A DNA stretch of 64,000 bases, taken from Psammoneis japonica. Its lineage: Eukaryota. The notes below the pieces were generated by a model, which was given only the letters and a program-made list of their open reading frames with translations, had not been told where the DNA came from and did not search any database. The stretch is taken from positions 1-64,000 of the forward strand of contig QPGO01000045.1 of assembly GCA_008632985.1 (NCBI GenBank), written 5' to 3'. The translations under genes were made by a program, and so were the position numbers. Position 1 is the first letter of the stretch, and every line of letters starts with the position of its first letter. This document shows positions 1,143-64,000 of this stretch, one piece after another.

Positions 1143-1539
1143 GAAGTAAACTAGATGGACGCTAACACACACAAAGAATGCTTACCATAGACTGATAAGT
1201 CTTCCCATTTTCTGATGTCATTTTTCCTGAAAAGTTTCATTTTCTCCTCCTTTACAGGTGGCTCTTGTTCGGTTCCCCTAGTCTGTGGTCTGAGTCTCAG
1301 CCGCTCACAATTTACAATGTCGCATCAGTCTTCCGAAAAATTAGGGCGGCGGACTACCTAAGAAGGTCAGGTCGGACGGACAGCAGCGCATCGGAACGAC
1401 GGACCGCACCAGCGGAATGACAATGACATGAGGAGTCGTTCCACAATTTGTATAATTGTTCCGAATGAGCGATAACATCTTTTGGATGAGCCATGTCCCA
1501 TTGTGAGTTGAGGTGTGCGGAGTTAGCTGCGAAGTGAAA

Positions 1540-19229: not shown

Positions 19230-19454
19230 CTAGGATACTGAAACTCAACGTAGGTTCCACATACTGATTTCTTAGTATTGACCAACGCGTGACGTCGACG
19301 ACCTTGTCCACATAAGAAATGTATTCGTTCATGAAGGTTAAAAATGTTCACTTTTCTGTGTTCGCTGAAACCACGCATGCACGCTCTCACATTTTGTTCA
19401 GCAAATAAACGGCCATGATGTCAAGTCGGTGTCAATGACGGAAGACGGAAGACG

Positions 19455-31192: not shown

Positions 31193-31459
31193 GGTTCTCT
31201 CTAGCTCAACAAGGCTGTTTCGCAAGATTGATTGTATCAACACCAACAAAAATCAATAATCAAAATGGCGTTGATTGAATGAAAAATGAAAAATGAAGGG
31301 TTCGCAATGCAGAAAAAAGGCTGAAAGAGGCTGTTTTCGAGAACAGCCTAAATACACTAATTATCATATAAAATTTGATTTAGGCTAAAACATTAAATAA
31401 TAAATAGCTTTCTTTCTTCAACCACGTCGTGTCTATAAATAACGGAAAAGCCTTAATGT

Positions 31460-33700
31460 CAAAGGATGCGAACCCGAGGAAGGCCTTTTGTTGCAGTGGG
31501 CAGCTGTTGCACTTTCACATGCCAGAAGGTGGCCAAGAGGACGGGTCAAGTGTCAGGTGGAGAAGATGATGTGGAACAGTTCTTCAAACGGTGCTCCACA
31601 ATGCTCATGAAGTGCTTCAATGTCAACTGCACAAGCGCAATGCTCGTTGCCTCCGGGCAAACGAATCTCTGCTTGCTGCGGCTGCTTCATGTGGTTGCTG
31701 AGAAAGCCACACAAGCAGGGCAGAATTCAAGAAAATTCAAAGAGAGTTGTGTCCATGGATGCAGCTCATCAATGCCATGCTTGCTGAGATGTGATCATTG
31801 AGAGGGGAAGTTGCTGGCTGACACTGGCAACACACGCTCTCCTCTGCAACACATGAAAGTGAGCGAGCACTCATGTTGTGAATGGCGGTGAGCTCACTTC
31901 CTGCATGGGCTGGCACCTGCCACAATGAGGTCACTGCCTTGTGTGTAGAAGACATCACATCAGCTCCAGTCAGTCATCTGGCATCTCACCAAAAACAAAG
32001 CATCGATGGGCGCTGATGGTTCTCAAGAGATGTGTGTGCTGTCTTCTCTGTGGCTGAACCAGCTCGCTGGATCTTCATCACCAACACCTCACCATGAGAA
32101 GCCAGCAGGCAGACAAAAGCCAAAGCATCTCCTGCAAGACTCTCAAGCAACAAGCAGTCCAAAAAGATGTGTGGCCTCTGCTGAGGAAAAGAGCTGGCTG
32201 GCAGGAGTTTGCAACTTTTGCACGTTGATGACAGCACATGAGTGCAAGAGTTGCACGTGATGCAGATTTGAGCTTGTGGCTTCTTTGCAGCCTTTCCCAG
32301 CTGGTCTGTTTGCTCTCCCTGGCACAACCACATTTTGCCCCCAAATGGAAAATGTTTTTGCAAATGTGGGAGATCGTGCTTCCCCTTGACCACTCCCTTG
32401 CAAAACCCAAGTTTTGTGTCTGTTCTCATGCACACATGAGATGAGCCTGAGTTTTGTGAGAGCTGGCCATCAAATCAGGTGTTGAGTCTCTGGGCCCAAC
32501 CACAAACTGTCATTCAAGCTTTTGTGTCAAATGCAAAAGTGCGCATTGTGACAATGTGTTTGTTGAAGAACAACCGAAACCTCAAAGATTCAGTTTTTGA
32601 TTGAGTGCCATTGCTGCTCAACCAAAAGTTGTGCAGATGGCCACTCATGCACCAACAGCACTGCGCACCTTGTTGAGGGCTCAAATTGTCAAGCCTTTTT
32701 TGTGCACTTGCAATGCAGAGGTGCAGTGCACAGAGGTGCACAAACCATTTGTTGTCACCCAATGCAAGTGCACCACTGGCGACAAAACAATTTGTCATTT
32801 GTGCGTGCACCCTGAGTGTGTGAGCGCACATTTGCAAATGACAACAGACAATTTGTGCACCACTTCTGGCAGCAATGCAGAGGTGGGCAACAATTCATCA
32901 TGTGTCAGGCACAGAACTGTGAGTGCTGCAACAAAGCATGAAACACAAGCCAATTGCGTCAATCAGCATCAAATGCAATGATCTGAAGATGGCCCTTGCT
33001 GATCCACAATGCCCAGCACTTGCTCCTCAAACAAGCTGGCTGGGATCAACAACATCAAGGAAGGAATGCTCAACCCAAGTCCAAAACAGAAATCTCAAGA
33101 ACTGGGGACAACAAATCAACTGCAGGTGACACATTGACAGCTTCTTGACCCCATGCACCTTGTCCAACCTTGCCAATTCTTTGGTTGATCTTTTTTGAAC
33201 TCTCTTTCTCTTCTTGTCCTCCTCTTGATTTCCCCAATTACATCTCAAACAAATTGATGCTTCGATGGCAAACTCTTGAGCTGCCTTTTTCCTTTCCTCA
33301 GGGCACTCCAACTGTGCCCTCTCTCCAGCAATTCAAGACTCTGGCGACACTTTGAACAGTCTGTGTGCATGCTGATCACATTCTGTTCATACCTCTTGAA
33401 ACCAGCCATGGCTGTGATGACTGAGCTTGTGGAGGAGATGGTGCCTTTATCCTCTTCATCTTCAATCCTCTCTGCAGTGGGCTACAAGGACTGTCATGTT
33501 GGCACACTTTGTGCAACTCCTGGGAAGTCTCTGTCTCTGAACCCGAACGCTGCTGTGGACATGTCAGTGCCGCAGGGATCATGGCGTTCGTGCTCATTGC
33601 ATTACCTGGGACCCCATTCCTCCTCTGTGTTTCAAATCTCGCTCTCAGCTCTAAAGCGCATTACCCGCACATGTGCACCAGCAACGAACGCATGTCGTCC
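31460..33700. repeat. TpA- and CpG-depleted degenerate repeat island
   Basis: No TA seen by eye from about 31950 to 33235; TG/CA-rich; only spurious Cys/His/Gln-rich ORFs. Confidence 0.65.
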
Positions 33701-42559: not shown

Positions 42560-43880
42560 GTGTCATTGTATGCACTTCAACGCAAGTCTCATTCAATTTC
42601 ACGCAAAATGCCCCCCACCTTCTTTTGCAATTCCATTGCAAAGTCAACTCCTCAACAATGGGTGCAATCAATCACTGCGTTGCCCTCACTGTTGTAGCAG
42701 AGGAGCTTCAGGAAGTCAAGGGCTGACTCCTCAAGATTCTCATTGTCCCAAAAGGATTCCGTCAAATCTCTTTGTGTGCTTCACCCCTCTCTCATGGTGA
42801 GTGAGTTGCCAATCCAAACAAGCAATGACCACACTGTTGCAGGAAGCAGTCTGGCCTTCTTGGGTCTGGTCTTCTTTCAAAGCTGCAGAAATGCAGCTTT
42901 GACAAAAGCCTTGTTGTGCATCTGGACACGCAACTCAACACTGGACGGCAAGTGTGCAACTGTTCAAGCAAGAAGATTGCAGAGTTGACATCATCAGTCA
43001 GGAAGCAATTGTGGAGCCCTTCTCTTGTTTGCTTCATTGTTGTTTTTCATCGCTTTCTCTGCTTCTGTGTGCGGTTGTGGGGACGTGGGGCTGCACTGAC
43101 CACAGCAGAGCTTCTCAACTGCCAAGAGATCCAGCCATGGCTGTTGGGGGCACAGCCATCATTGCTGCTCTCCAAAAAGTCAAAAAATTGAGGTGGGACC
43201 ACTTCAGCTGCTCACAACTGAAATCACGAGTTCAGCCCAGCTGCTCGTGTTTTTGCGCAGCATGGCATGCACTTGCGCACACACCTGTCAGCAAATTCAT
43301 GCGCCATCCACTGTGTCCATGTGCATCAATGGTCAACAGCCTGCCCCTTCTAACCTTCTTTCCAAGATTCACCTGACAAGTGTCCAAGTCAAGCTCCTTG
43401 GTCATGACACGCCCCATTTGCGAGACTCCTCAACTGTTGCACCCACCAGTGGTGTCTTCCTGCCCCCCAGCGCTCAACCCATGATCATCTTGGTGCAGAG
43501 CGCAGAGCTGGGCACCATTTTCTCACACCTTTTTATTTGGCCATTCTAACAAGGCCTCTGCCTCTCCCCCCTGCCCTCCCCAGCCCCTGCCTTGGGCCAT
43601 TCCCTCTCACTTCTGCAAGAGCTCCCAACCAAGCTCCCTTCTCAGTGCGCCAATCTTTCCTCCTCTCTCCACCACTTGAGAATCTCTGCTCACTCCTTAA
43701 ATGTCAGCTCTCTCCCCACCATTTCAGGTCCTCCTCCTTTTCTTCTTCTCCTCGATCCTGGGCTGCCCAGCTCCTCAGTCTCAACATTGGCCTTGCCCTC
43801 TCCAATCACCCATCTCCGGCACCTGCCAGTCACCGCCGCCCGCCTCCGCCCTGCCACCACACGACACACCGCGAGCGCCT
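42560..43880. repeat. TpA-depleted degenerate repeat island
   Basis: About 7 TA in 1.3 kb by eye, TG/CA-rich, no credible ORF. Confidence 0.6.
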
Positions 43881-43942
43881 TTTGTATGCCTTGCCACCGC
43901 ACGCTACTTTGGACTTTCAACTTTCTCTCATAACATTCGCAC

Positions 43943-44861
43943 ATGACGAGCGGAGTTGGATCATCAAGCAACGACATGAAACAGCGAAGGCGAGTATGTC
44001 TTTTCGGCTTATCAGCCGACCCACCAACTTCAGACGGTGGACATGGGGGCATCGTGAAATCCCTTGCGAACGAAAGCTTTGATGAAGTGCGAATCATACC
44101 GGTGTATCAACACACTTTCTCGGTAAGGTTCATTCATTCGATGCGAAATTCCAAGGTGCTTTTTCTGACATTATGTTGCTCATAACCCCAAACTGTTTGT
44201 TTCAGGAAAAGAGAGACAGAATGGCATCATACAGAGACCGAGTTGAAATGTGTAGATTGGCGTTTGCTGGCATCCCCCACGTCACTGTGTCGGAGGTGGA
44301 GCGAACATGCTTTGAAAAGAAAGCTTCTGGCTTGTAAGTGAATATGCATTGTAGAACAATGATGAGGATCATGGATATAGAACTAATTCATGTACTCTTT
44401 CCTTTTGGTTGAATAACAATATTTTCCTGAAAAAAAGAAGCGATTGCGAAAAGGCATCCCTGCGAGTTGGTACAGCAGATTTGCTAGACATGCTCTTGGA
44501 GGAAGAACCGGAATCCGATTTTTATTTTGCGCTCGGAGCAGACACTTTTGTGGACTTGACGAGTTGGAAATGGAGGCGATCACGTGATGTGCTTGACTTG
44601 TTGCAAGGTCGATTCGTTGTTGTCTATCGAACTATGGAGGATCCAAAACGACAGGTTTCACTTGACGCAATCAAGAAGCAAGTAGCAAAAGTTGCCGAGC
44701 AATACCCGGGAAACCAAAGAATACTCTGCATTCCAGGCCTTGAAGCTGTATCATCCACCCAAGTGCGGGCATGTAAGAACGAGGCGTTGCTCCGAGAAAT
44801 GGTGGACGCCTCTGTGCTGTTGTACATACGAGAAAACAAGTTGTATGATTTCGAAGATTAG
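43943..44861 (+). CDS. Nicotinate/nicotinamide-nucleotide adenylyltransferase (NadD-like)
   Basis: VCLFGLSADPPT..GH, R.EMC.LAF, GTADLL, FALGADTF.DL..WKW, VSSTQVR, VLLYIRENKLY; introns from 44123 and 44334. Confidence 0.85.
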
Positions 44862-45263
44862 TTTCTGTTTTGACGTTGCCGGATTCGAGCGAGAAGGATT
44901 GAAAATGAAGAAATCTTGGTTGGCATGGACAAAAAATATCAGTGCACTAAAGGTCAAACGTGGAAGCGCCCTGCTACCTGGCTCATTTAGATCGTTTCCT
45001 TCCAAGGCCACGAGGCCGATGGTTTATTGCGATCAAGAGAATTTGCCCAAGGCACCACATTGTTACGAGTTACACCAGAACGCTTTGTTTCGACAAGAGT
45101 ATGTCGCGAGTGCCGTTTCTAATCAAAAACTAAATCATCAACGAAACCACCTCCGGTATGGAGAGCATTGTCGTTCTGGAGTAATTTGTCCGAAGAATGG
45201 GCAGGTCTATCTTTCTCGACGAGGAGGCACGTCGCGAGACTCGAGACGCGAACGAGATGATGA

Positions 45264-46380: not shown

Positions 46381-47214
46381 CGCTATGGATAGATACATCA
46401 AAACTCTTTTTTCATCAAGAAGCCTGTCACGAGTGCCAATCCTAAGCACCCACAGACATTGCCGCAACATTTATGAAACCAGCTCCTGACCCGAAGAGGT
46501 GGCCATCGTATCCGTTGACCCTTTCGCAGTTGAGTGAGTGGACCTTTTGAAGTCGTTAATCAAAGACGTTCCTCTATGCATTTGCAATGCCGTCGCTGTT
46601 TTCACTCTTGTGGCTTGTGCACACACCCAATAGATCGGGTCAACGATTCCTAGTAGCTCCTTGCGAGAGCCATTCGATTGTCAGAATAAAAGGTCTATTC
46701 CTATTGACAATAAACTCCTCGATATCATCTAATGAGCCCAAGACAGCAGCTGCTGATAAGCCCGTTGCAAGGGCGCCTCCAATGGTCAAGAGTGAGTTGC
46801 AAACAAATTAAGAGTGGGTAACCACATTGTCATCCACGACGATGTTTTTCGTTTCAATCGGAAGAGCTAGTGACTCGACATTCTCTACAGACAGTAGGCC
46901 TAGACACATGCGCATTCTATTGTTGAACTATAGTCTTGCTAGCCATAGCATTACTCTTCTAACGGTACATGCACAACACCATAATGGCACCGCAGGCGAC
47001 TGGCCAAGACACGACAAAAGCATAAATTATAAATTTAGACTTCACCATGATGCTCGCGATTGCCCCAAAGCAGCAGCACAGAACTTGCACCCATGTCCAT
47101 TTTTTGGGAGAAGAACAAATTTTGCCACAGCGCAGGAAAGATCGAATGTCAAGGCAACCCAGCTGGCATCAGCAGACAGGGCAACCAGCTCATGCCTGCT
47201 GACAGTCATGAAGC

Positions 47215-47581
47215 TGCACTATGCTCGAAGAACGAGTGTAAACGAAAGTAGAATAGTGTACGAAAAGTGGAAATTATGAGATTAAATTTTGCTCTGTGAT
47301 TTTTGGTTTCTCCGAACGAGTTCTCAATGGCCTAAAGCTTCTGTACTGCTTCTACAGACAAAAGGCCTTTCGGAGAATATATTCGTGACAACAGATTGTC
47401 CGGATACGATTGCTATTGACACGTAAGATGTCAACATCGTCAATCGATCGTATTTGCAATTCTCGACATCCGATCAACTCTGTGTGATCGTTCTGTCCTT
47501 TGTACGCATCCACGACTGTGGTACGATTGACATATAAATAATATATAATCATAAATATGTATATAACAGTCGCATACTGCA
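47215..47581 (-). repeat. Gypsy 3' LTR (TpA largely retained)
   Basis: Gap-free alignment with 51575-51941. Confidence 0.95.
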
Positions 47582-50500
47582 TTCGCCTCCCTAATTGCAC
47601 ATTAGAGTCATTTGTAAGTGGATTATTCGACGGACATCGACAGTGTCAATAATGTCTCCACTTTCATTGTATTGTGCCATTAGCAATGACTGTTGTTGTT
47701 TTGTATAGGCAATATAGGGCCGTTCCAATTTCCGAATGTCTTTTGAGAGTGACATTGTTTGTTTCTCACTTAATGTGTATATATATAGCATTACGTCGAG
47801 TATTCTCATTGACGTTCTTGTTGATATGAACACAAGGACTAATTGTCCTGGAGTAAGTGTTTTTCCTGATATCGATTGTACATAGCATCGTGCCCAGCAC
47901 TTAATGTACGCTCTTAATTATGGCGTTCACTTACTCACTTGTGGATTTCATGTAGTTTGGCGGGCTTACTTTATATGCCACATTGCTCTGCTGCACTACC
48001 ACGTTTCATAAGTAATAATAAACGATGGTCAAAGATATTATGGCCATTTCGTCTTGATAATCAATCCTGTGATGGTTATGAATTCCATTATGGATTTTTT
48101 TTTTTGTACTTCAACCATCTATCAGTTGGATTTTAATCGTTATTTGGACGTTTCTTTCTGACATACCGGTGTTATTTTGTCATTCCGAAGGCACTGGTTT
48201 CGTGCACTAAGTGGATAAATGTCCATTTTTCTTTTCTTTTTCTAGATCTTTGGCACATCTCGTGTGTCGACATGATGTGTGTTTTAATGTCTTGCCTCGT
48301 ACATTGTACAATACAACCGTACGGGTGTTGTGAGATTGTCTTTTGCCAGTGTGAAGTGGATACGTATAATGTATACCAATCTGTCACTGTTTTTTTCTAA
48401 ATCGTCCTTTAAAAAGGCGATTTTATTCTTGTGACATGAGCATTTTTCGATCTCGCTCGCCTCCACGAAAAGTGTTCGTATGATATGTCGCGTCCGACAA
48501 TTTGGAGGGAATGTCTTTATCCCGTTTTAACGGTAGGACATTGTCGTAGGATTCAATTTTCTATAGTAAGTCGGCTGATCGCGTCTATCGCGACGATGTT
48601 CGCCTTGCCCTCGTTGTATTCTAATTCGGGACTGAAGTTGTCAACGTATGACTTTGTCCGTTGTGTCTTATGATCCGTATATGTATAAATCTGTTGGCCA
48701 AACAGTATATTTCGAAATTTTATAAGTGTTTTCACTATGGACAGAAGTTCTTTTTTCCGTTGTAACGTATAATATTGAAATCCGTGTATGATAACAATAT
48801 AGTTTTTGATTTGATACGCTCCATATTTTCGGAGACTTTTCGTTCCGTACTTGTACTTTTGCCGTTTGACCTTTATTGAGGTGAATTTGGCTAGTATTGT
48901 ACAGGAGATCGTTGAGACTACATGTCTCGATAATAGTAACGTATGACAACGAGATGTCGTAGTGTTCTTTACGTTTTTCTCGTGTTGCGATTGCTTGAAT
49001 CGCCTCCATTTTCTTTGTAATCGATTGCATGTCGTTACGTGTGGAAGTCTTGATAGTTTATTTCAAGTTAAATAGTGAAGGACTTTTGTTGTTAACCTTC
49101 TAAGCGACTGTTCTAGTCGTTTGAATGCCGTATTAAGCTGTCACTTGTGCAGGTGATATTTTGAAGTTACTTTTGTCAGGCACAAACGATCACACATGGT
49201 GGTTCTGACAACTTCAAACCTGTTGTGAGTTCACTCAAGTGTTGCACAAAAATATCTGGGGCTCTGTAGATTCTCATTGGAAGTCCACAGCACTCATTTT
49301 CTCCCCACGGCATGATTTTCGTGTGAGCACGACGTGTGCTTTTTTCATTTGACATGGTGGCATTCCATGTTTGAATCAAATGGATTGCATGTGTGAAACG
49401 TTCTTGCTTCAACAGCATTTCCTGAATATTGGGTAAAGGACACACCACCTGCATGAACCTTACACTGAGCTTCTGAGTGTCGGGTGCGGTCGAACTCGAC
49501 CTGTTTTCTTCAGACAATGAGTCTCAGAGCGACTTGTTCAGAGCAATTTCATTCTCAAGACTTCAATCTTTCATGACAGGTCAAACTCCTTTTGATTGGA
49601 CGCCTCCAAAGACTGTGATAGGAGAAGGTTCTCACGCATCGTGGAATCGCGTCAGATTTTCCACGATGAGATCCACTGATGCTTCCCATGCACTCGTCTG
49701 AGGAACTTTTCAAAACGATTTCAACCTCTTAAGAAGAAGATTGAGTTGGTTGTGTTCATTTGGGTTAGATGCATCGCCGCAGTTGTCACTTGATTAAGAT
49801 TGATGGCGTGACAATGTGAGTCGAGGACCATTGGCTCCATTGTTGACTCCATTCACGGCGTCACATTTTTCAATGTGATCGGTTTTCAGCTTGAAAACAT
49901 CGGCATCGAAGAGTGTGCGAACATTCTTCATAAGGCAATTGCTTCTTCCCATTGGATTTCTTCATTTGCGCAGTCCAATGTGACTTGCAGGACTGGACAT
50001 TAAGTCGCGTCCCATGATCACATCATTTGAACCTGAAGAAAATTTGGTGTTTTCAACACATGCTGTTTGAACATCAGCGTGCCTTAAATTTCGCACAGTG
50101 AGAACTGAGTTCGGTGTTTGCTGTCAGTCGCAAAGAGCTCACCCTTGGTTTCCCAAGTTTTTGGTGGCGGATTCTTGTGTTCTCAACTTTCGCATGAATT
50201 TGCGCAAAATCATGGTTGACGATGTTCCGTTGTCGACAGGAACACGCAGATGCTTTTTTTTTTCTCTCCTTTCCCAAGGAAGTGTTCACACAAATGATGA
50301 CTCCTGGACCAGTGTGAATTGTTTTGCCTTTTTTCTAGGCTTCCCAATGTCCAGCAAAGCGTGCAATTCGTGAACAGACCAAAATTGTTCTTCGGATTCA
50401 GTCTGGATCATCCGATCAAATTGGCATTTTTCTTCACTGAGGGTGTCAGAATCTGATTCTTTGCCCTCATGCTCTTTTTCTTTGTTCAAGGAACTCGCTT

Positions 50501-51574
50501 TGAGCATTTTTTGAACCGCCTGATCAATCATGACGTTCATCTCTTTTTTTGCGAGCGGCATTTTCGTTGTCGCGACGCGACCGCGTGCGATTGCCATTTG
50601 AACGGCGCATTTTTGGGTCTCTTTCAGAGTCACCCTTGCACTCTTTTGCTGGCTCATTTTTAGAATGGCTTCAATCCGTGATGTGGGTGTTCTTTTTTCA
50701 AAGATGAGACCTTGCATTCACTTTGGATTGTTCTGGCACCATGTGGGAGACCATTTTTGGAACCAAATTTGGAGCCTTTTTTATTTTGGAACCAACTGCG
50801 CTGTCAGAGCCTGAGTTGACATGTTTTTTCGTCACGGACGTCATGAACGACCTTCAGATGACTCAAAACTTAATCATCTCATCAAGGATGAGTTGCAATG
50901 GTTGATTGTTTTGGACAGTAGACTGATGCTGCCATCCTTGCGGTGCGAGTGATGGCTGATAAATCAGCGCTCGGTTTCCCGCTAGATTCGACTTAGAATC
51001 CATCTGAGGGTCGTGTGGACTCTCATCGTTGACCTCTTGGGTCTGACAGAGGCTTTCTCGCTGTCAAGCAGCTCTGGTTTCTTCAGGTCGTCTCGAAAAT
51101 AATTTCCCTGATTCTGAAGTGCATTTCCTCGGAGGACATGAGTTGTGAGACGCTTGAGGCACTTTCCAACGATTCCCTCTTGCTCCTTGGACTCGAGGAT
51201 CATCGACTCGGTCTCAAAAAACTCTCCAATGGTCTCTCCTTGCATGGTAGACGCATTTCTCGGATCTGATCGACTCGGAACTTGCGTTCTCTGCAACCAT
51301 GACTTGGTGTAGATTTTTTGACAATGCGGTGCACTTGAGAGCCCTTGATCCTTGGGTGCTTGGAACAGACCGCATTGGAGCGAATCCTCTTGTCTGGCAG
51401 ACGAAAAACAGCGTTCCATCTTGAGGTGCTGCTCGGCTTGAGCTTCTTCCGCTCGGAAATCGATTCCAGCAGAACTGACGCGATTCGTTCCTGTTCACAG
51501 AAGAATTTGCAAAGGCACATTGGTTAAAATTTTCATTTTCCGTGCTTTTTGCCTTCTGTGGTGTGTGTGCACAA

Positions 51575-51941
51575 TGCACCATGCTCGAAGAACGAGTGCA
51601 AACGAAAGTAGAACAGTGTGCGAAAAGTGGAAATTATGAGATTAAATTTTGCTCTGTGATTTTTGGTTTCTCCGAACGAGTTCTCAATGGCCTAAAGCTT
51701 CTGCACTGCTTCTACAGACAAAAGGCCTTTCGGAGAACATGTTCGTGACAACAGATTGTCCGGATGCGATTGCCATTGACACGCAAGATGTCAACATCGT
51801 CAATCGATCGCGTTTGCAATTCTCGACATCCGATCAACTCTGTGTGATCGTTCTGTCCTTTGTGCGCATCCACGACTGTGGTGCGATTGACATGTGAACA
51901 ACATGTGATCACAAACATGCACACAACAGTCGCACACTGCA
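51575..51941 (-). repeat. Gypsy 5' LTR (TpA hypermutated)
   Basis: Identical to 47215-47581 except at TpA sites. Confidence 0.95.
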
Positions 51942-53295
51942 AAGCAGCACCAGCAGCACACAACACCAGCTGTGCCAATGATTGCACAAAGGGAGCATTG
52001 CATTCCTTGTGGGGTTGCCCGGTGGGGCCATCTGTGTGGCAGTCTCAAAAAAAGCAAAAAACTCATCAGATGCCCCCCACAACATTCAGCAACCAAGTCA
52101 GACCATTTGGAAGGCCAACAGCACTGCACAATTTTGGTGACTCAGTCAGCTCAAGAATGCTGCAGTCATTTGGAGTGACATGCTTTCTCTGCTGCTGTGG
52201 CAACAACCATTGTTTGTTGCTGCTTCCACCATCTCTGTTTGCTCTTGCAGCTCAAGAATTCAGGCTTGCATTGTGGCACAAAACAAGGTCATTTCAAATG
52301 TCTTTTTGTTGAAAGAGACACCCGCCTGCATCAGTGAAAGAGAGTTCAAGGACCATGCTTCATCTCAGAGGCTTGCACCACTGTCTTGAGAAAATCACAC
52401 CTGTCCTCCAGAGACAACAAAAGGGAGAGGAGCACAGAATTTCTTAAATTTCTGCTGGCAGTTGCTCACTGCAGCCCACTTCTGGCTGGCACATTGGCAA
52501 AGTCATGTGTGGTGCTGCTGCTGGCCAGCACTTTTGTGTGCCAAGATTTTCCAAAGTTTTGCTCCACCACCTCAAGGACCATGCACCAATCCAATGGTGC
52601 AACTCTGCAGCAACAAAAGAGCCTGTTGACTTTTTTGCTGTGCCAAGCACCTGGGCTGTGTCTTGCACAACCAGAGTTTGTTGTGGGTGCACTGACAACA
52701 CTTCTTGCAGAGAGCAGCCAGAGAAGCTGGGGCAAGAAGCAGAGATGAGCACTGGCATTTTTTGACACTCTCCTGGGGAAAGAGAGGCCCACCCAGGCTC
52801 CACTTCTGTCTGCAACTCATTGACACAACTTCATTGACTGTGGATTGGCAAGCATGGTGGGGAGGCCCCTGTGTTGATGAAAAGACTGCAGGCTCTTCCT
52901 CTTCTAGAAAAAGGACAAGGCTGGTGCGCACTTTTTTTCAAGACTTTCAAATGTCGAAAATCATTTTTCACATTGAAGAACATGCCCAGTCAAACAAAGC
53001 AAGTCTTGACATTGATGCTGGAAGCACGTGCAACACTCCACCAAAGAGGGACACTTTTTGCAATTTGGGGCACAAGACAGTGCCCAAGTTTGGCTTCTCC
53101 TCCTGCAAGAAGCCTTTGTTGGAGCGCTGCAGCTTGCTGGTCTAGCTGGCACATGTTTGGCTTCAGAAACAACCCCGAACTCACCGCGTGTGTCTCACAA
53201 GCACATTCCCAATGCTGTTGACCACCATTGCCATGTCAACCGGGTGAAAAAGCCAAAAAAGTGAGCACAAGACCCACAACACAATCCAAGCTGTG

Positions 53296-53740
53296 TGCAG
53301 CATGCATGCAGACAAAAGGTTATTTTGTCACGCCCTTTGTGACATTTAAAGGCTGCAACACGTCGCCGTGATGCATCAACTCTCATCAGTGGCTGCATGT
53401 TGCACTCCTCCCCATGTGTCACGCGTCCATGCGGCTCTTTGCTGACGTGCACTGACACTGCACGGTTTTGGTGGAACAGTGTGGGTGCGTGCGAAGGAAC
53501 ACACAGAACTGCACAGAGTTTTGCGCGTTCGACAGTGATCAACGTTGCTGCAGACAACTCCCACTCAGGGTTTCGAACCCCTGGCCTCCTGCCCAATGGT
53601 TGCGATGAACCACTCCGCTGTGAATTCACAACGCAGCATGCGTGCAGACAAAAGGTTATTTTGTCACGCCCTTTGTGACATTTAAAGGCTGCAACACGTC
53701 GCCGTGATGCATTGACTCTCATCAGTGGCTGCATGTTGCA
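53296..53740 (-). mobile_element. TRIM-like miniature LTR element
   Basis: 109-bp direct repeats 53296-53404 and 53632-53740 with inverted termini, TSD TGTG (53292-53295, 53741-53744), PPT ggggaggag (53405-53413, minus). Confidence 0.8.
53558..53625 (-). other. tRNA-like Pol III A/B-box segment inside the TRIM
   Basis: Minus strand cAGCGGAGTGG (53610-53620; A box TRGCNNAGYGG with T>C) and GGTTCGAAACC (53569-53579; B box), 30 bp apart. Confidence 0.55.
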
Positions 53741-54459
53741 TGTGAGTGCAAATTCACCACATTGTCTGCATTGTCAGCGCATCTTTGCACCGCAACACTG
53801 TTTGTCTGTCCTGTGACAAAAACCACCTTTGACCCTTGATGTTCCAACACACTCCTTTGCATGAGCCGTCAGTTGGTTGGCCTCGTGCACATCAAGTGCA
53901 GTGCCAGGAGGATGACACTTGGAAATCATGCCACCCAACACCACTTTGACTGCTTCATTGATTCAAAAGCCCACATCATCTGACTCTGCCAACAAATGAT
54001 CACTGTCAGGACAATCCTTTGTCACATGTCCAACCTCATCACATTTCTGGCATTTGATTTGCGTTTTCTTGTTCTGGGCAAAACTTGCAACCTCAGGTTT
54101 CTTGTTGTTCCCAAATGTGTCCAACACCTGCAATGCCTCCCCTTGGTCACATTGGGGTGATCATCACCCCTGACAGAAATTGAAGGCAAATGGCAAGAAT
54201 TCAAACAACAACTCCTCACTGCTGTCTAAACAGCAGATGAGTCTCCGCTCAGAGACCGTTGCAGGAGCCGAAAGACGTGCAAGTCGGCACAATCGGGCTG
54301 CTGTTGTCATTCTTGTGAGCCTTGTGGCTCGAAAGCAAACTACATCGCGCGTGAACGCGCGGAACTAAAGCACACAAAACTGTGCGCGGTAAACTAAACA
54401 GCGCGCGATGCTTCGCGCGCATCCAAATCCTGTTCAAATCCTGTCACTCCCCAGTTTGC

Positions 54460-57400
54460 TTGAGGAGCCACAGAAACAGATTCGACTTCGGATGGAATGA
54501 AGTTCCAGAACATGAGGGGGCGGAGAAGGTCCCAGATTTGGGAGCAACCCCAATGCTTGCTGAGAATGTCAGCAGGGTTGCGGGAGCCTTCGATGAAGTG
54601 GAACTCAAGGCAACCAGAGGCAATTGCCTCACGCACACGGTGGAACGACAGTGCGGTGTGTCGCTTGTGTAACTTGGAGTGCGGGATGGTGGCACTGTCT
54701 ACAACCGACTTGTTGTCACCGAACATGTAACTGACATTGCGGATCGGGACGCCAAGGTGGCGCAGGGTGATGCGCAGGTCGACAATCTGCTCAACACAAT
54801 TCCTTGCGGCAACAAATTCAGATCCAGGTTGCAGTCTCCACGGTGGCTTGTTTCTTGGAGAACCAATCAGCTGGGAATTTGTTGAGGAAGTGGAGCATTC
54901 CCATGACAGAGCGTCCGGTGAGCATGCAATGGCACAAGTTTGCATCGACGTAGTGGGTGGCAGTGATGAACTTGCCAAGGGGCGGTGGAGCGTCCTTCGG
55001 GATCATCTCTTCTGCTTCACCATGCACGGAATGCATCCATTCATAGGCCGGAGCAGGGAGATCCGAATGGTCGGGCTCTTCCGTGCGAACGCGGAGAGCA
55101 CCGTGTCGCATCTTGGAGAGGCACCCACAGACGCGTTTGGCACGATCCAAGTGGCCTTGACGGGGCGCAGCTCGGAAGCTAGAGAGTGACATGACAGCCG
55201 TGGCAATGTCAATTCGACCAAGGGACACTGCCCATTGGAGTGAACCAACAAGAGACTGGAACTTGTGAATGCCATCGGGTCCCAGCAGTTTGGAAGTGTC
55301 CAGTTCGGGGTGGTCACCCTTCTCTAGAGGTGACAGGGCGTTGGTGGCAGGTTTCTCCCCAAACAGTCGGGCGCAACTGTCGACCATGCGCTCGATGTAC
55401 TTGCGCGGAGACAGGCACAAGGTTCCATCGGGGTCCCGGGAAAAGTCGCAACCCAGATGGAACTCAATGGGTCCCGCACCCTTGAGCTTGAACTTGTGCT
55501 TTTCCGTGAGAGTGTCGACGAAAGATTGAGGGTCCTTCATGGCAATGGCGAGGTCATCCACATAAACGGCAATGTGTTCACAGTGGTCGCCGTTCCTGCG
55601 CATCCAAATGTCGGGTTCGGCGCGGCAGGGGAAGAAGCCTTCAGCTCGCAGGCAGTCGGCGAAGCGCTCGTGCCAGCGGAGACCGGAGCTGCGCAGTCCA
55701 TGCAGTGCCTTGTGGATGACAAGGATGTGTCCTTCGAGTTTGCCAAATTCGGGTCCAGCTACAATGTAAAGCTTCTCCTTGGTGGTGGCTTCAAGGTGGG
55801 CATTGCCAATGTCGGTGGCCCATGTCTCCAGCTCGTTGAGTTCGGCCAGGAAAATCATCAGCCGAAGGCCACGGAGGGAGACCACTCCGGAGTAGACACT
55901 GTCGACAGGTACGTCCGTGAGGTGCCCGTCGGCTACGAGTCGTGCCTTGTGGCGACCGTCGTGTTTCACGTCGCACACCAGGTGCACTCGGATCTTCTTG
56001 TGTCCCGCAGGAGGAGTGGAAGACTTGAAGGGCCCGCAGTCATGGAAGACTTCGTATTCGTCGAGTTGGTCCATCTCGAGATTAGTTGCGTCTCCCCACT
56101 TGCGGTTGCCGTTGCGTTCGTCTAGTGACATGGCGTGTTTGTAGTTCCGGGGAACTTCGCATCCGTACTTGTAGCGAGGTGCAGTGCGGAAGGAGCGAAG
56201 CTTGGCTTGGTTGGCCATGCGAAATAGCTTCTTTTGGCGCCTCGCGATGGTGCGGAACCGCTTCCAGCCATCCGTGTCGAGGAGTCCGTTCTCTCGTGCA
56301 TAGATGGCACAGGTGACGGGGTCGTCCTTGGCGATGATGGCAAGAGGCTCGGACGTGATCTCCCCACTTTCCCATTCAAGCATGATGTTGTAGCTTGAGC
56401 CTTTCCAGGTTGGGTCGTGAGGCTTCAGAGGTCCTTCGTGTGACACGATGCGTCGAAATTTCCAAACAGTGGTGTCTTCGTCTTCTTGCTCAATGTGATT
56501 CATGATGTCATTGCAGGCAAGGACTTCCTCGTATTCGTCATTGTTGACAGAGCAGACGAACTTAGTGAGCTCGGGATTGCCGTTCACTTTCCATTCGTGG
56601 TCTTCGACGGCCTTGACGATGCGAGCTCTGTGGCGTTGTCCGTCCTCTTGTGGCTGCATGAGGAAGGTACGTCCAATGATGTCTTGCGGATCGAAAACTG
56701 GCATCTTGGGTGTCCTGATCTCCCCATCAGGAGAATCGACGGGGTTGTCGTCATGGCGAGATTTGATGATGGGTTCAGGTGGCTCCCCATCAGGAGGATC
56801 AAGACGCAGGTTTCGAACGGCAGGATCGGGGGTAGCGGAGCGAACGTTGGACCGGCAGAGGATCTTCTGAGTCTCGTCAGATAGAATCTTGAAGGTCATC
56901 TGGTGGCCGACGTGCTCAGCAATGCCAACGAAGCGTCCACGCAACTCACGGGATTCGGACGGCCAATCAGAGTCATCGAGGTGGAAGTGCACTGGTTCCC
57001 ACCAGTGAAAGCGAAGCAATGGGCTGATGTCCGGGGTGGATCCAGTGAGAGTCTCGAGGGGCGTGCGCCAGTGGAGACGTGGGGACGCTGTGTGGTTGAG
57101 CATGAAGCACACATGCATGAGCGCCAGCAGCCATGTGTGGGCGGGCGAACCAAAACGGTCCATGACAGTGTTCGCCATGCGCTTCACGGTCTGGTGTCGA
57201 CGCTCGGCAAAGTTTTGGTGTTGCTGGTGAGGCTCACTTTGCCAGCTGGAGATGAAGAGGGCGCGTAGGATCCCGAGCACTTTGTTGCTGATCTCAACTT
57301 GAGCACGGTCGCTAATGAGTTTGGATGGGGCACCACGTTCACGGATCTGATCCTCGAGTGTGTTGACAAACTCTTTGTCCGTCTCAGTGCCGTAGACGTC

Positions 57401-60061
57401 AGTGACGGTAGACTCGGTGCCAACAAACAGTTGGGCGCTGGTGCAACCAGAGTCGACGGCCGGGGTGTCGGCACAAACGGTGTCAGTGGCGACAGGCTCG
57501 TTGCGGCGGTGCACATTAAGGGCGGGGTTGGGTGATTTGTGGGCCTTGCGAAGGTGTGCACCGGCGGGCATGCGGGCGTACTGCGTGGTGCAGTCAAAAG
57601 TACGACGGACCGTGTCGGCAGGTAGGAAGCCAAAGCAAGGCCGAAGAGACTCGAAGGGGGGGTCCTTGGGCTGTACAGTGCGCTCCGGAGGTGGAACGTC
57701 ATCGCCCTGGGGGTCAATCGCATGTAGATGACACTCGGAGAACACGTCGTCGTTCGGAATGAGGTGATCATCGAGGGCGGACGCGTGATCGGCAGACAAG
57801 GAAGCGGACAAGATGGTCTCGTTGACAACGACACGGTGACGGCAGTTGCCGCACTCGTCAAATGGGTTGGCGGTGGGATCGTCCTGCAGGTCAGAGATCG
57901 CGTCGTGCCACTGGTCGTCGTCAGTGACAGAGTGATCGAGGACGGAAGGGTCCCATGTGTCATCACCGGTGAGGATGACATGGGGCAGGGTGTCCCATTC
58001 GGCGTCAGTGCAAGGTCGCATGGCAACATGAGGCAGGCCAGCCTTGATGTCAATGGGGATGACACAGCCATCAGGAGTGGCAACACGTTGCAAGCCGTTG
58101 GGCACCTTGACAGAGCGATCGTTGACATCCTGTTTGTGCCATTCGAGCTGGCCGCAGGAATGGATGGTCTTGCCCTTTCCCGTGCATGCGCACTGATGGA
58201 GGATGGCGATGACGGGACCACGCTGGGTCTCAATGACGGCACCAGCGGTGACAATGGGGATGTCCACCAATTGGTGATCGTCAATGCCCTGAACGTCGAC
58301 TTGGCGAGAGGTGCGTGCAATGACGCGAACGTCGTCGCCAGCAATGCCGCCGTTGGCCCCACGATCGACTAGAGCGCCAGTGCGTGTGGAGCGATGAGCA
58401 GAGGCAGAGTAAATGACATTGTGGTTGTCAACGCGGCGGCAAGTGCGGCCGTTAAGTTCTGTGTCATCTGCAGGAGCTGGCGGGGTAGAGGAAGCGGCGG
58501 ATGGCCCCGGTCGACTGGCATTGGGGGCTTGGTTAGGTGACAACAGACGTTGCAGATCACCGGGTGGCAGTGGCTTGCACTTGGTGAGGTGCGCCAGGAT
58601 GGGATTGTCCGAAGTGGCGTCCACATGTGCAGCGGAGTCACCACAGTCAGCAGGAGTCGTGTTGGATGAGTTGACATCACCGTCGCTCCCAAGGTGTTGG
58701 TCGTGAAGGTTGGCCGTAACAGACTCATGGCAGTTGCTGGCTCGCGGGTTGCGGGGAGGCGGACAAGAATGCTCAAGGATGATCGCCTTGGAGGAATCGG
58801 GCAACGAATCCCAGAGCCGTTGGTGGTCGGGAGGGAGACGTCTCCATTGGACACCGGTGAGGCTGGGACCGCGGGTGCAGGCAGCATTGGCTTGAAGGAC
58901 GTCAACGTCGCTGTCAATGTCGTAGAACACATCGTCGGACGGTTCCTCGGAGCAGACGTCGTGTGCGCATGTGGCGCGTCGGGGAGCTCTAGGTGTCGTC
59001 TTGGGTTGAAACGTGCTGTCGCACTGAGCTGCCGCAGAGAGGAGCAAGCCACAGCATTGATCGCATGTGAGGCTCTTGCCACTCTGTGTACGATGCTGAT
59101 CAGCTTGGTTCTTGACAGCACGGAGTTCCTCGACAGGGTGCACGGCATTCTCGAGCATGACGCGCTTCTGTCCTTCAGAGAAGTGGTCACTGGCGGGGAT
59201 GAGTGCCTCGCACTTGCGCAACTGATCTTGCCAATGAAGGATGAACCCGTGGGTCGGACCTTTCCAAGTGCCATCACCAAGACGTGCGGTGGTGAGGTGC
59301 GTGAGCAGGGTGGAGGACTCGACAGATGCGCGGGTGGAGGCAAGCGCGTGCTCAGACAAGGAGCGGCAGACGGTCTGTGCGTCAGAAGACCCCACATTGT
59401 CGCGAATGAGAGCCTTGCCCTTGTCGGTGAGAAGGATGCGTTCGAAGACGGCGAACATGTGCTTTTGCTGTTCAGCAAAGAGCAGTTTGTCTTCGGGGCT
59501 GGTCGGTTTGTACGACGAGTCTAGAATGCACTCGACGTCTTGGGCACGGGCTTGTGCCACAAGTGAGGTGTGCCAAGTGTGCCACTGCTTGTCAGATTTG
59601 AGAGCTGTGAAAGCAGTGGGATCACGCTTGATGCCTCGCTTGAAGTCTCGCACCAGGTCGCGTGCCTTGGTCGGGTTGGTGACATGTGGAGGTGCAAGGG
59701 GTGAGCTGCCGATGGACACAGAAGACATGTGGTCGGGGCTGAGGCGGTGGGCAAGGAACTCGTCATGCGTGAACAAAGAGGAGTCGTTGGCAACGTCAAG
59801 ACCTTTGTGTGCTTTGACAATGTGCAGACTGACCAGTGCTGCTAACATGTTCTTATAACCACGGGGCAAAGGGATTGCATTGGTGCCGTTGTCGCACTCA
59901 AGCGAGTCGATTTGGGACGGCATGAACGTGAACAGTTCCTGATGTGAGTCCGTGCCGTCTTGGGCCAAAGCCAAACGAAGAGGACTCCCAGCACCTTGGG
60001 CAAGCACGGTTCCAACAACATGCTCGAAACCATCGGTTTGTTGCTGACGAGTGAGAACCAT
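54460..60061 (-). pseudogene. Copia gag-pol polyprotein, Tyr-depleted, frameshifted near 54825
   Basis: LVDRGANG (protease), ISDRAQVE / QNFAERR (integrase), RHKARLVA, YVDDL (RT), SEFVAAR, GDNKSVV, NPADILSK (RNase H, second frame). Confidence 0.92.
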
Positions 60062-60990
60062 GGCAGACAAAAGTGGTGTCAGGACAATCAATTCTGGTTG
60101 GGAAGCGAAGGTAGACTCGAAACTTGGGTGAGAATGGACTTGACTTGAAATGGACTTGACTTGAAATCTTGAACTATCTTAAAATCAGAAGTCGCCGGGC
60201 TTTGTCATCCCGTTCGTTGTTGAGTGCTAAACTTCCCATCCGGTCCGTAGAGTTGTGCCGGCACGTCCGAACCCGCAGCCAGCGGCACTTTGGGTTGCTC
60301 ACGAGCGGAGTAGCGGGTTGTAAACCCCTGCAGGTAAGCTGACTAGAGGTGGACAAGACCCCCGAACCGTTCTTGTTTTTATGTCGGTTGGATTTCCCGA
60401 TCAGGCTGGCCAGTTGACGCAGGCGTTGGGCGCTGTGGACGAACGAACAAACGCGGGAAAGCACCCTCGCCCCAACGTAGGCTGCAATCACGGCCACTTG
60501 CTCTCACAGTCATCCTCGTGGACCTAGCAGAACTGTAGAGCACCAGTGGTCCGGGGTAGATCAGGTGCAATGGACTCGGTGTGCTTGTAGAGTGGCAGCA
60601 AAACCGTAGTCCGAAGAGTGGATAAAGGTTCTTGGCCGTGAAGATATGCATGTATATATATATATGTCTTCAGCGACTAAGATCCTTGAATGTGTAGGGT
60701 TCTTGACCGTTAACCGAGGAATAGGTATATCAAGGGATGTTGATCAAGGATAGACTTGGATATGACCGTTGAATATAAGTCTTCAGCGACCAAAGGTAGT
60801 ATAATCAATCCAGATATCCAGCGGTAAGGAGACTTGACGGTGACGTTAACTTCCTGCCGATGCCCTGGTATTGAATGCGCGTAGACTTGCCGATGTATGT
60901 AGAATATATACGGAGGTCCACGTAGAATTGAAATAGCGTCGTTGGTAAATCAACGACGACGATGGCGGTTGCTCAATGGGTTGACAATGA

Positions 60991-61005
60991 GCAAGACTGT
61001 TAATC
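60991..61005 (-). promoter_or_regulatory. Putative primer binding site complementary to a tRNA-Asn anticodon arm
   Basis: Plus strand gCAAGA CTGTTAA TC directly abuts the 5' LTR; it reads as anticodon stem, CT-GTT-AA loop and start of the 3' stem. Confidence 0.55.
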
Positions 61006-61286
61006 TGACAGAAAATGAAGGCAAATGGCAAGAATTCAAACAATAACTCCTTACTGCTGTCTAAATAGCAGATGAGTCTCCGCTCAGAGACCGTCACAGG
61101 AGCCGAAAGACGTGTAAGTCGGTATAATCGGGCTACTGTTATTATTCTTGTGAGCCTTGTGGCTCGAAAGCAAACTACATCGCGCGTGAACGCGCGGAAC
61201 TAAAGCACACAAAACTGTGCGCGGTAAACTAAACAGCGCGCGATACTTCGCGCGCATCCAAATCCTGTTCAAATCCTGTCAACCCC

Positions 61287-64000
61287 CCAGAGTGAACTGC
61301 TGATGTAAATCTTTCAAGACATGCCATCATTCATTGGCACACTCCTCCATTGGCACTGCCACTGACAACTTGTTTCTTTCTTTTTTCTGGGCATCATCAG
61401 CATCTTTGCTGAACCCATCTTCTTTCTTGGCAATCTCCCCCATGATGATTCTGCCACAGCACATTTCTGCCACCCCCTCAACAAAATGCTCAAGAGCTGA
61501 CGATTGAAACTGCCTTGAAGCACCTTTCCTCCTTCATCTTGATGAATGGTTTGCAGCCACTTCCAAGCCTTGGCCACCTGGACATGTGGGTTTGTCTTCT
61601 CACTTGCATCAAACAAGATCAACACGAGATTTTCTGGTGGTGCTGCCATGATGTTCTCCACTCCTTTGTGACTCTTGCAAACTCCCCACTCCTTCAATCT
61701 TGTGAGGATGAATGGCCTTGGCACATTGTCCCACAATTGTGCCAAATGCACTTGCCTTCTGGATCTTGCAGATCACATTCTGTTTCACACAGTGATCACA
61801 TTGCTTGTCCCAGATTGCCTTGCTCTTCTCCAATGTTGTGTCTCATGATGAAAGCTGCCTCTGACCCCAAAGTCCACAGCCTTTCCCAAGCAGACAGAGA
61901 GATCTGCCCCCATGCCACCCAGCAGCATTGGAGCTCTTTTCTTCAAAGAGAGCATCGCAGCTCAAAGAGCTCTGCAGCCCACTTCTGTTTTCTGCTTGTG
62001 ATCCAACCAACAAGGTCAAGCTCATCTCTGGCTCCACCAAAATGCTGCAAGCCTCTGTGAGTCTTTGATTGAGCCTCGCCCCATTCTTTGAAAGGGGGTG
62101 AGAGACCTCATTGGTGTGTTGGACTCAATGGAGCTCATCACTTGGGCTCAGCAGATTGGCTGCATGTGCCAAAAGGTTTGCTTTGGAGTCTGGATTTCAT
62201 GACTGAAAATTCTGGTTCAAGCCATCCCTGCACCTTGGCAGCCATTTCCAGCCCTGGCAGAGTGTTCTTCAACTCCACACTCTGCATCAAAGCATTGAAA
62301 TCTTCCAACATGGCCATGTTTCACATGGAATGACAAGTGCAATTTTTGCACAAGTTGCCATGGCAGTGTGCTGTGTGGTTGTTTTTGGCAACTTTTTTTA
62401 AGTTTGTGATTGCAGCAGTGGCACCAATTGACAACATGTGAAAAGGACATGATCAATGTGTGTCACAAAGCGCCAAAATGATGCACACTTTTTCCTGTTG
62501 AAATGGCCCTGTCATGCTGCACTCAAGATCTTTTTCTGTCTTCTTGTTGCACTGCAGAAAGTCTGTAAAATGTCATGGCTTTTGTTCAAAATTTATCCGC
62601 ACTGGATCAGATCCCTGTGTTCTTGACAAGGGCCGGTTGATTGTGGTTGAAGAGCCTTTCACAATTGTTGTGACATGTGAAGCAGGAAACAACACTGAAT
62701 GAAAATTGTTCTTGCAGTGCATGTCATCTTAACAAGATGATCTTTGTGCACACCAAGAGTGATTTCAACATGACTCAGTTTTTGTTTGCAATCAATGTGG
62801 CAGACAAAGCAGGAAACAATGGCAAACAAACCTTGTGACTTGCAAGGCTGTGTGCTGTTCACACAATCTGATTCTTGCACGCCACAATTTGTTTTTTTGG
62901 CACTGAGTCTGCTTTTGCTCCCTGTTTTTTCTTGTTCTTTCCTCCTTGCTTTGTTGGCTCTTCTGCCAGTGCTGCCATTGCCCTTTGCTGTCTGCACATG
63001 ACAAGCCATCATCAGACATCTCTTGAGCCAGAGAGCCAGTGCTGAGTTCCTCCATCACCGGTGCACCATGATGAGAAAATCAATGTTTTTGTTGAACAAC
63101 CACTTCCCACCTTGTTCATTGGGAAAGACACCTCCATTGTTTGTTGATTGAGGCTCTTGATTGCTGCCAGGAAGCAACAAAAAGGAGAGACAAGTGTGAG
63201 GGATTGTCATCAAGAAGGTGTGGGGGGACATGAATCTGTTGGTGCTTGAGCAAAGGAAATTGTTGAGAGGTCCTGGCACATCCAAAGAGGAGCATGAGGC
63301 AAATTGTCACTTGAGGAGCTGACAGGGGAGGGAGGTGCATTGCACAGGCCAAAATGGAAGAAAGAAAAGAGTGCTGAGGACACCATTGAAAATGTCTGCA
63401 GAGAGCACACTGGCCATTGTTGTCAGACATCTGACCAGGAGGACAGAGTGGGTTGCATTGCAACAGGGATGTGCCATTGTCGTCAGTGCATGACATTGGA
63501 GGATGAGTTGTGCAGTGTCCAATGGGAAAAAAGGACAAATGCAGCAGAGCAGAAATGGAGCAAAACAAAGGCAGAAAACTGAAGGGTGGAAAAAAGCAAA
63601 CAAATGAAGTTGTTGGCAAGTTTGACATTTGGACAGAATGAACATCATCATTCATGAGTTAAAAGCCAGCATGAGACAAAATTTGCATTTGTGCAAATTG
63701 AGTGTTGTGGTCACAATCATCAGCACAAATGTGAAAATTGTGACAATTGGTCAGTGCTCTTCTGATGGTCAAGCATGGAAACATGTCACAAACTAAAGTC
63801 AGACTGTGAGGCAGCTAAATCAGATCCTTGCAACACATCAACACCTGTGTAGACTGGTGCAAATGTGGTGGACACAATGCCGTTGTTGTTCTGTTGAGAT
63901 GGCTTTTAGAGCAGAGTGTTGAAATGGCTGAAGACAAGGTTGCAAGAACTTTGCATTTTTGACAACAATTGCTGAAGTCACCAATGATGAGTGCAACATT
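61287..64000. mobile_element. Older, heavily mutated repeat relic (right of the Copia insertion)
   Basis: No TA by eye in 61308-62398 and 62732-63659; very few CG; no intact ORF. Confidence 0.65.

Follow-up and report, generated by a model that had tools for sequence, protein, structure and literature searches.

The window analysed here, a stretch of 64,000 nucleotides from Psammoneis japonica (contig QPGO01000045.1, positions 1 to 64,000), carries compact, intron-poor host genes and two long terminal repeat (LTR) retrotransposons, one of the Ty3/gypsy type and one of the Ty1/copia type (Table 1). Within bounded tracts of this DNA the dinucleotide TA is almost absent, and CA plus TG occur at about double their usual level. 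The same loss separates the two LTRs of the gypsy-type element, which differ from each other only within TA sites. We argue that this pattern very probably reflects a real process that acts on TpA in the chromosome.

Table 1. Retrotransposon features and TA-depleted tracts in the 64,000-nucleotide window (o/e, observed/expected; TSD, target-site duplication; RT, reverse transcriptase).
Feature	Position	Strand	Description
Ty3/gypsy-type LTR retrotransposon	47215..51941	-	4727 bp; LTR pair TG...CA and 4-bp TSD
Left LTR (3' LTR of gypsy-type element)	47215..47581	-	unedited, 30 TA
Right LTR (5' LTR of gypsy-type element)	51575..51941	-	edited at 25/30 TA sites
Gypsy TSD AAGC	left copy 47211..47214; right copy 51942-51945		
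RT remnant of gypsy-type element	49520-48774	-	tblastn to relatives with RVT_1, RT_RNaseH and rve
RNase H remnant of gypsy-type element	48756-48556	-	tblastn to the same RVT_1/RT_RNaseH/rve relatives
Ty1/copia-type LTR retrotransposon	54171..61281	-	RVT_2, 276-bp LTRs; edited except 5' LTR and leader
Copia 5-bp TSD ACCCC	54166-54170 and 61282-61286		
Copia polyprotein frame	54818..60178	-	1786 aa, no stop, RVT_2
Copia 3' LTR	54171..54446	-	edited: 10/15 partner TA sites are CA/TG here
Copia 5' LTR	61006..61281	-	essentially unedited; with leader (60301-61281) TA o/e 0.95
TA-erased tract	1500..3100		4 TA vs 61 expected; broken by 568-N gap 1737-2304
Intergenic TA-erased tract	31455..33650		6 TA vs 142 expected; 31 CG; between ZIP-transporter-like and FKBP-like genes
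TA-erased tract	42600..44000		9 TA vs 78 expected
Young TA-erased tract	49250..60300		~11 kb; 98 TA vs 620 expected
Left edge of young tract	49200..49300		inside gypsy RT region; 6-8 TA per 100 bp on the left, 0-3 on the right
Older TA-erased, CpG-poor relic	51942..54170		between gypsy and copia elements; TA o/e 0.05, CpG o/e 0.29
Older TA- and CpG-erased relic	61282..64000		right of copia element; 10 TA vs 201 expected, 11 CG in 2.7 kb; runs off window

The internal region of the gypsy-type element is degenerate, and its right-hand ~2.7 kb lies within an edited tract. RT precedes RNase H on the minus strand, the Pfam RT_RNaseH match reaches 23.6 bits, slightly below the cut-off of 24.8, and an integrase or gag match was not found in this copy. 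The label 'Gypsy LTR', given in the original prediction, is supported by the RT and RNase H remnants and appears reasonable for an assignment drawn from part of pol only. We corrected the orientation: the element is encoded by the minus strand, which makes the left LTR its 3' LTR.

The alignment of the two gypsy LTRs is gap-free along all 367 columns. Of the 26 differences between them, 16 have T in the left copy and C in the right, and 10 have A in the left and G in the right. All 26 lie within a TA of the left copy. The altered sites read CA (15), TG (9) and, at 47451-47452 alone, CG in the right copy. Left and right LTR accordingly hold 30 and 5 TA, 20 and 35 CA, 29 and 38 TG, and 21 and 22 CG. 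Since only 60 of the 367 bases stand within a TA, all 26 differences would land there by chance with a probability of 3.6e-21, which becomes 1e-15 when change is restricted to A and T bases. Our alignment and context tabulation recovered every count of the original prediction, and the example strings quoted there occur in the sequence as given. None of the 307 bases outside TA differs, against 25 of the 30 TA sites, and the change has therefore been far faster than background mutation. It affects both strands, T>C and A>G being interleaved along the LTR. It is also post-insertional, as had been proposed from the identity of LTRs at insertion: the TSDs of both the gypsy and the copia element are intact. 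Divergence between the gypsy LTRs is 7.1% raw and 0% with TA sites masked, and dating by LTR divergence would thus overestimate the age of the insertion, again as predicted.

The copia-type element repeats the pattern with the rewritten copy on the other side. Its LTRs differ at 13 bases, of which 10 are TA in the outside (5') copy and CA or TG in the inside (3') copy; two more come from a single TG-versus-CA site and the last is a transversion, so that 12 of the 13 are of the A>G/T>C type. The TG-versus-CA site (54260-54261 against 61095-61096) implies that even the 'unedited' copia 5' LTR has been hit at least once. A repeat pair outside the LTRs shows the same TG-versus-CA contrast, at 53377-53378 and 53713-53714. 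Such site pairs are what would be expected if an ancestral TA had been edited independently, on opposite strands, in each copy.

The copia polyprotein frame gives a Pfam RVT_2 match of 92.6 bits, and the element has 1738 database relatives, mostly from environmental assemblies, with a best identity of 72%. Despite its open frame of 1786 codons the hypermutated element is certainly dead. No stop codon can arise from T>C or A>G changes, which explains why the frame is still open; TAA plus TAG occur at ~5 per kb per strand in the tract versus ~17 in host DNA.

The direction of change was read from conserved tyrosines (Tyr). We aligned the copia frame with 40 database relatives of 50-61% whole-length identity and defined a conserved Tyr column as one with Tyr in at least 80% of at least 30 relatives. 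At the 38 such columns the copia frame has Tyr 13 times, Cys (TGY) 13 times, His (CAY) 8 times, Phe 3 times and Trp once. Tyr accounts for 25 of its 67 departures over 675 conserved columns. Five control relatives keep 33-38 of 38-40 Tyr, with at most two Tyr-to-His/Cys changes each. Overall, the Tyr content of the frame is 1.06%; among the 120 closest copia proteins the minimum is 2.86% and the median 3.84%. In the gypsy-type element we examined codons at which at least six relatives have Tyr. To the left of 49250, 6 of 9 are kept and none has become His or Cys; to the right, none of 6 is kept (2 Cys, 1 His, 3 other). Both comparisons indicate that TA was the ancestral state and was then lost, in line with the direction first proposed. 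Classic repeat-induced point mutation (RIP; CpA to TpA) had been the first reading of the LTR alignment and was rejected by these two tests, the replacement of Tyr by Cys or His at 21 of 38 conserved copia columns being a loss of TA.

A dinucleotide scan of the window, with the expected number of TA calculated from base composition, revealed how far the loss extends. In five tracts TA lies at ~0.04-0.21 of expectation, the ratio (CA+TG)/(AC+GT) is near 2, and the edges are confined to within 100-500 bp. TA-free stretches inside tracts reach 1.3 kb. In the host-gene stretches of the window TA o/e is 0.58-0.59. The young tract has 2006 CA+TG versus 1389 AC+GT, and its CpG count matches that of stretches with normal TA. 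At its left edge the fall in TA is confined to 49.1-49.3 kb, and its right end lies in the leader of the copia element. The effect is a property of a chromosomal domain and not of the LTRs, and the edge of this domain falls inside the gypsy-type element. The original prediction did not include this tract, the other tracts of the window or the second element with one edited and one unedited LTR.

Two tracts contain LTR retrotransposons. The older tracts hold 34 open reading frames of at least 100 aa, which matched no Pfam family apart from one sub-threshold match; no convincing terminal repeats were found in them, and no similarity was found among tracts, even with transitions collapsed. The sole N run of the window (568 N) falls within the tract at 1500-3100, and erased mobile DNA may coincide with assembly gaps. 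The older tracts, including 31480-33650, are also nearly free of CpG (o/e 0.08-0.29), so that both self-complementary dinucleotides have decayed to CA/TG. This CpG loss suggests long-term cytosine methylation of the same domains.

Differences between the tracts record at least two rounds of editing separated by new insertions. Inside both elements the young tract has a TA o/e of 0.14-0.31 and a CpG o/e of 0.85-1.19. The older relics that host both insertions (~47037-47214, 51942-54170 and 61282-64000) are more fully erased and poorer in CpG, with TA o/e at 0.05 and CpG o/e at 0.29 and 0.08, which implies a separate, earlier round; 47037-47214 appears to be the left end of the relic at 51942..54170. 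The unedited parts retain a TA o/e of 0.83 in the gypsy-type element and 0.95 in the copia 5' LTR and leader. The history that we read from these values starts with the erasure of the old relic, which was also stripped of its CpG, probably as methylated DNA. Next the gypsy and copia elements entered this already erased relic, and in a later episode 49.25-60.3 kb was rewritten. That episode covered the 5' LTR and 5' part of the gypsy-type element and all of the copia-type element except its 5' LTR and leader, which left each element with one rewritten and one untouched LTR. We estimate ~173 edits in the right part of the gypsy-type element (86% of sites) and 160-259 in the copia-type element (74-82%). 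Undoing the ~173 edits returns the GC content of the gypsy right part from 0.456 to 0.391, and the unedited part has ~0.37-0.41.

Across both LTR pairs, 35 of 45 TA sites are edited, 22 to CA, 12 to TG and 1 to CG. Both strands are hit at short range: the two kinds of change are interleaved in the LTRs, and the copia frame has 13 Tyr-to-Cys and 8 Tyr-to-His replacements. Independent hits on the two adenines of a site, at the observed frequencies, would be expected to give several double (CG) sites. Only one of the 35 edited sites is CG, which agrees with hits that come one after the other: the first removes the TpA context that a hit on the other strand would require, so that TA-to-CG is rare. 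Along the gypsy LTR the CA and TG outcomes form 9 runs versus ~12 expected in a manual runs test; this gave no clear sign of strand processivity and carries no weight in our argument.

The edited adenine prefers 5'-TAY-3' (Y, pyrimidine; R, purine). Sorted by the 3' neighbour, edited adenines amount to 13/23 at TAC, 17/34 at TAT, 4/21 at TAA and 2/12 at TAG (Fisher p 0.0016), and all five Y-TA-R sites in the two LTR pairs have survived. In line with this preference, Y-TA-R makes up 15% of TAs in unedited parts of the elements, 35% of those that survive in the young tract and 52% of those left in old tracts, and the corresponding shares of R-TA-Y are 38%, 14% and 7% (p 2e-6).

Duplicated segments in DNA with normal TA served as controls. 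There, TA-type differences amount to 9/91, 0/20 and 1/25 substitutions, or 10/136 in total. At 44500-46400, adjoining an erased tract, lies a tandem duplication of ~1.39 kb with nested 187-bp repeats at 77-94% identity. It diverges via CpG transitions and transversions and not via TA loss.

Taken together, we consider a real process that is directed at TpA and acts in situ very probable. It would be a chromosomal process, active after integration, that turns TpA into CpA or TpG in bounded tracts covering mobile-element DNA, by an A-to-G change at 5'-TA-3' on either strand. Its specificity, its polarity, its reach over both strands, the tract structure, the TAY preference and its speed relative to background are shown by the data above, whereas its chemistry and function are inferred. 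The chemistry is presumably enzymatic deamination of adenine in DNA, to inosine, which is read as G, and an ADAT/TadA-like deaminase is a candidate for the enzyme that we name with some reserve. The process would serve genome defence against mobile DNA. As to what sets the limits of the tracts, our guess is chromatin state or RNA guidance.

Several observations weigh against this interpretation. All counts take the assembly sequence at face value. Among 79 environmental copia loci no comparable tract was found, the lowest 1-kb TA o/e being 0.22-0.27, although the patterns used to retrieve these loci required an intact YVDD-type motif and were biased against edited copies; none of the 120 closest copia proteins is Tyr-poor (minimum 2.86%). 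In the Fisher test on adenines both strands of a site are counted as if independent, an assumption that fails once one of them has been hit. Moreover, GTAC is not depleted among tract survivors (9.2% versus a baseline of 7.6%), a poor fit to a simple TAY rule. As a separate observation, the low 1-kb values come from the loci L078 (2561 bp) and L029 (2759 bp), with an overall TA o/e of 0.31-0.33 and a CpG o/e of ~0.75; both are possible cases of mild editing in other diatoms.

The alternative that survives best is a sequencing artefact, in which a base modification at TpA in silenced transposon DNA is misread by a long-read base-caller as G or C and the consensus resolves to CA or TG. Errors at methylation motifs have been reported for sequencing base-calling, and a systematic miscall at a palindromic motif could also leave a signature that is confined to domains, symmetric between strands, dependent on context and free of indels. 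It is less able to account for the difference between tracts: that the old ones are both more fully erased (TA o/e 0.05 versus 0.14-0.21) and CpG-depleted (o/e 0.08-0.29 versus 0.85-1.19) relative to the young one looks like accumulated history and not like one chemical state. An erasure of 80-95% with almost no CG and no indels in 643 LTR columns is also unlike a tie of strand-specific miscalls, and the odd-sized 568-N gap suggests that the assembly was scaffolded and is not purely long-read. Finally, the same signature appears as true de novo mutations in Illumina data from the chlorarachniophyte Bigelowiella natans. We therefore regard an artefact as unlikely.

A second possibility accepts the process and places it elsewhere, with the mosaics arising by gene conversion or recombination with copies that had been edited at other loci. 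Tract edges inside elements would be explained in this way, as would the copia 5' LTR and leader, a 1-kb unedited island with erased DNA on either side. The edited DNA, however, forms one contiguous block over part of the gypsy-type element, the old relic and most of the copia-type element. A donor would need to be identical outside TA, given 0/307 non-TA differences between the gypsy LTRs, and both TSDs are intact. Such an origin is thus very unlikely.

Editing before integration, by an ADAR-like activity on retrotransposon RNA or an APOBEC-like activity, here on adenine, on single-stranded cDNA, deserves attention because animal deaminases are well known to edit the intermediates of retroelements. 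APOBEC3 and ADAR likewise produce clustered, deaminase-driven transitions that inactivate retroelements. They act on cDNA or RNA, before integration and strand-specifically, and APOBEC changes C, whereas here adenine has changed on both strands of chromosomal DNA after integration. Both LTRs are copied from the same template, so that edits made before integration should be shared, and editing of RNA or minus-strand cDNA would not change both strands at short range. The edited portions are the 5' part of the gypsy-type element and the 3' part of the copia-type element, both on the minus strand and contiguous on the chromosome, and DNA between and beside the elements, belonging to neither, is erased as well. 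Opposite ends of two elements together with erased non-element DNA effectively rule out an RNA or cDNA intermediate as the substrate. The site preference differs too: ADARs favour a 3' G, and TAG is the context least edited here (2/12), a pyrimidine being preferred.

Selection against TA, for example by a TA-cutting nuclease or through RNA stability, is hardly credible as a substitute for mutation, even though TA avoidance by selection exists in some genomes. The changes destroy conserved tyrosines of the catalytic domain, they occur in non-coding LTRs and in relics without annotation, and they distinguish two otherwise identical LTRs of one insertion. Least probable of all, to the point of being negligible, is that the TA of the left LTR and of the adjoining part of the gypsy-type element was made out of CA/TG by fungal-type RIP or another C-to-T process: the AT-rich left half (GC 0.37-0.41), one 500-bp window that passes RIP-index thresholds and the DNMT4 enzymes related to fungal RID that some diatoms encode (PMC9998398) are outweighed by both Tyr polarity tests, by abnormal composition on the TA-free side (zero TA over up to 1.3 kb), by the return of the right part to about the composition of the left once edits are undone, and by a host that is a diatom and not a fungus.

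The identity of the host was inferred from the genes of the window. Ribosomal protein L10a has as its named nearest relatives only diatoms (Odontella, Pseudictyota, Thalassiosira and Trieres, 84-87%), and MMETSP transcripts match at 90-92%. These protein matches indicate a diatom and not Bigelowiella. Several host proteins start with signal-peptide-like sequences ending in ...SAGAF or ...SASG, which we take to be typical of diatom plastid targeting. A FANCM-like helicase gene (12703-19347, minus strand) consists of three long frames of 1302, 318 and 549 aa and hence has few introns. A ZIP-transporter-like gene contains, at 30756-31040 on the minus strand, a 15-bp tandem repeat in 13 in-register copies that encodes a His/Glu-rich (HEGEE-like) stretch.

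The closest precedent is the TpA hypermutation described in mutation-accumulation lines of B. natans sequenced with Illumina technology (Mettrop et al., bioRxiv 2026, doi 10.64898/2026.01.13.699255). There, two integrated viral regions accounted for 231 of the 302 nuclear mutations, and 230 of these 231 were A>G or T>C, all of them at TpA and yielding TpG or CpA. The rate was ~6e-7 per site per generation, in some lines only. Mettrop et al. further list 324 TpA-depleted coding sequences, enriched for reverse transcriptase and DDE domains, and 124 clusters of 1-kb windows depleted of TpA and enriched in CpA+TpG. They propose an adenine deaminase, with an ADAT2-like candidate, and cite DNA activity of ADAT2.

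The likeness to our window is extensive. In both cases the changes are almost only A>G or T>C, occur at TpA within bounded foreign or mobile regions, spare host genes and exceed background by orders of magnitude, and in both, TpA-depleted, CpA+TpG-enriched DNA covers elements with reverse transcriptase. Whereas B. natans is a rhizarian with giant-virus and virophage inserts, the present host is a diatom, a stramenopile, and the targets are LTR retrotransposons and unannotated relics. Erasure is near saturation here (74-95%), and the nucleocytoplasmic large DNA virus region of B. natans still has 3.3% TpA. Tract edges that cut single elements and the TAY preference are visible in our window, and the rate, measured directly in B. 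natans, is accessible here only indirectly. By analogy, the two would be the same kind of process. The AT-to-GC rate and the TpA frequency of B. natans, at an assumed ~55% A+T, would correspond to a loss of TA sites of ~1e-5 per generation. At that rate the time needed for a loss of 83% would be of the magnitude of 1e5 generations, a span in which background mutation would leave 307 bases untouched, and no RIP-like burst is required. Our observations are best filed as TpA-directed A:T-to-G:C hypermutation as in B. natans, now in a diatom and on LTR retrotransposons. Our literature searches on this process found only the B. natans preprint and no report of TA-directed hypermutation in diatoms; term searches of Maumus 2009 and of a 2025 preprint on diatom transposable elements (TEs), and passages of Hoguin 2023, gave no mention of it, and the word 'diatom' occurs 0 times in the B. 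natans preprint.

The process also invites comparison with RIP in Neurospora and other ascomycetes. Both comprise fast, post-insertional, dinucleotide-specific transitions on both strands, in tracts over mobile or repeated DNA, and both wreck coding capacity and distort LTR dating. Whereas RIP changes C to T at CpA and thereby creates TpA, stop codons and AT-rich DNA, TpA is destroyed here, GC rises by ~4-6 points and no stops arise. RIP leaves a high TpA/ApT ratio, and in our tracts this ratio is 0-0.2. The trigger of RIP is sequence duplication; here duplication alone is not enough for editing, since the tandem copies at 44.5-46.4 kb show none.

On the side of the enzyme, TadA, ADAT2-ADAT3 and the adenine base editors derived from TadA share with the process the conversion of A to inosine in a 5'-U/T-A context. 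The natural target of TadA is U-A-C in the anticodon loop of tRNA-Arg, similar to the TAC/TAT preference described above. We know of no natural member of the TadA/ADAT family that erases TpA over kilobases of chromosomal DNA.

For anyone who studies such genomes, TA editing badly inflates dates from LTR divergence. Dead elements will be annotated as intact by gene finders, given that this mutation spectrum yields no stops. Islands of TEs become richer in GC and in CA/TG, and the erased relics escape homology searches.

Tentatively, we hypothesise that an adenine-directed counterpart of RIP exists in diatoms. In this view a DNA adenine deaminase that is guided to domains and favours 5'-TAY-3' would strip silenced mobile DNA of its TpA over ~10^5 generations. 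Such a deaminase would be a naturally occurring adenine editor of chromosomal DNA, one that kills elements by missense while their reading frames stay open. Shared by a stramenopile and a rhizarian, the process would amount to a genome defence, old or horizontally spread, across the stramenopiles, alveolates and Rhizaria (SAR), and comparative genomics between the two lineages offers a route to the enzyme. To the picture from B. natans the window adds one hit per site, the preference for TAY, tracts whose edges run through elements regardless of their limits, and two or more rounds with new insertions between them. If the sequence is right, the TpA-specific hypermutation known from one chlorarachniophyte is at work in diatoms too, on LTR retrotransposons and in a phytoplankton group that is both major and well studied, and what was a single-species curiosity becomes a candidate for a widespread genome defence based on adenine and not on cytosine.

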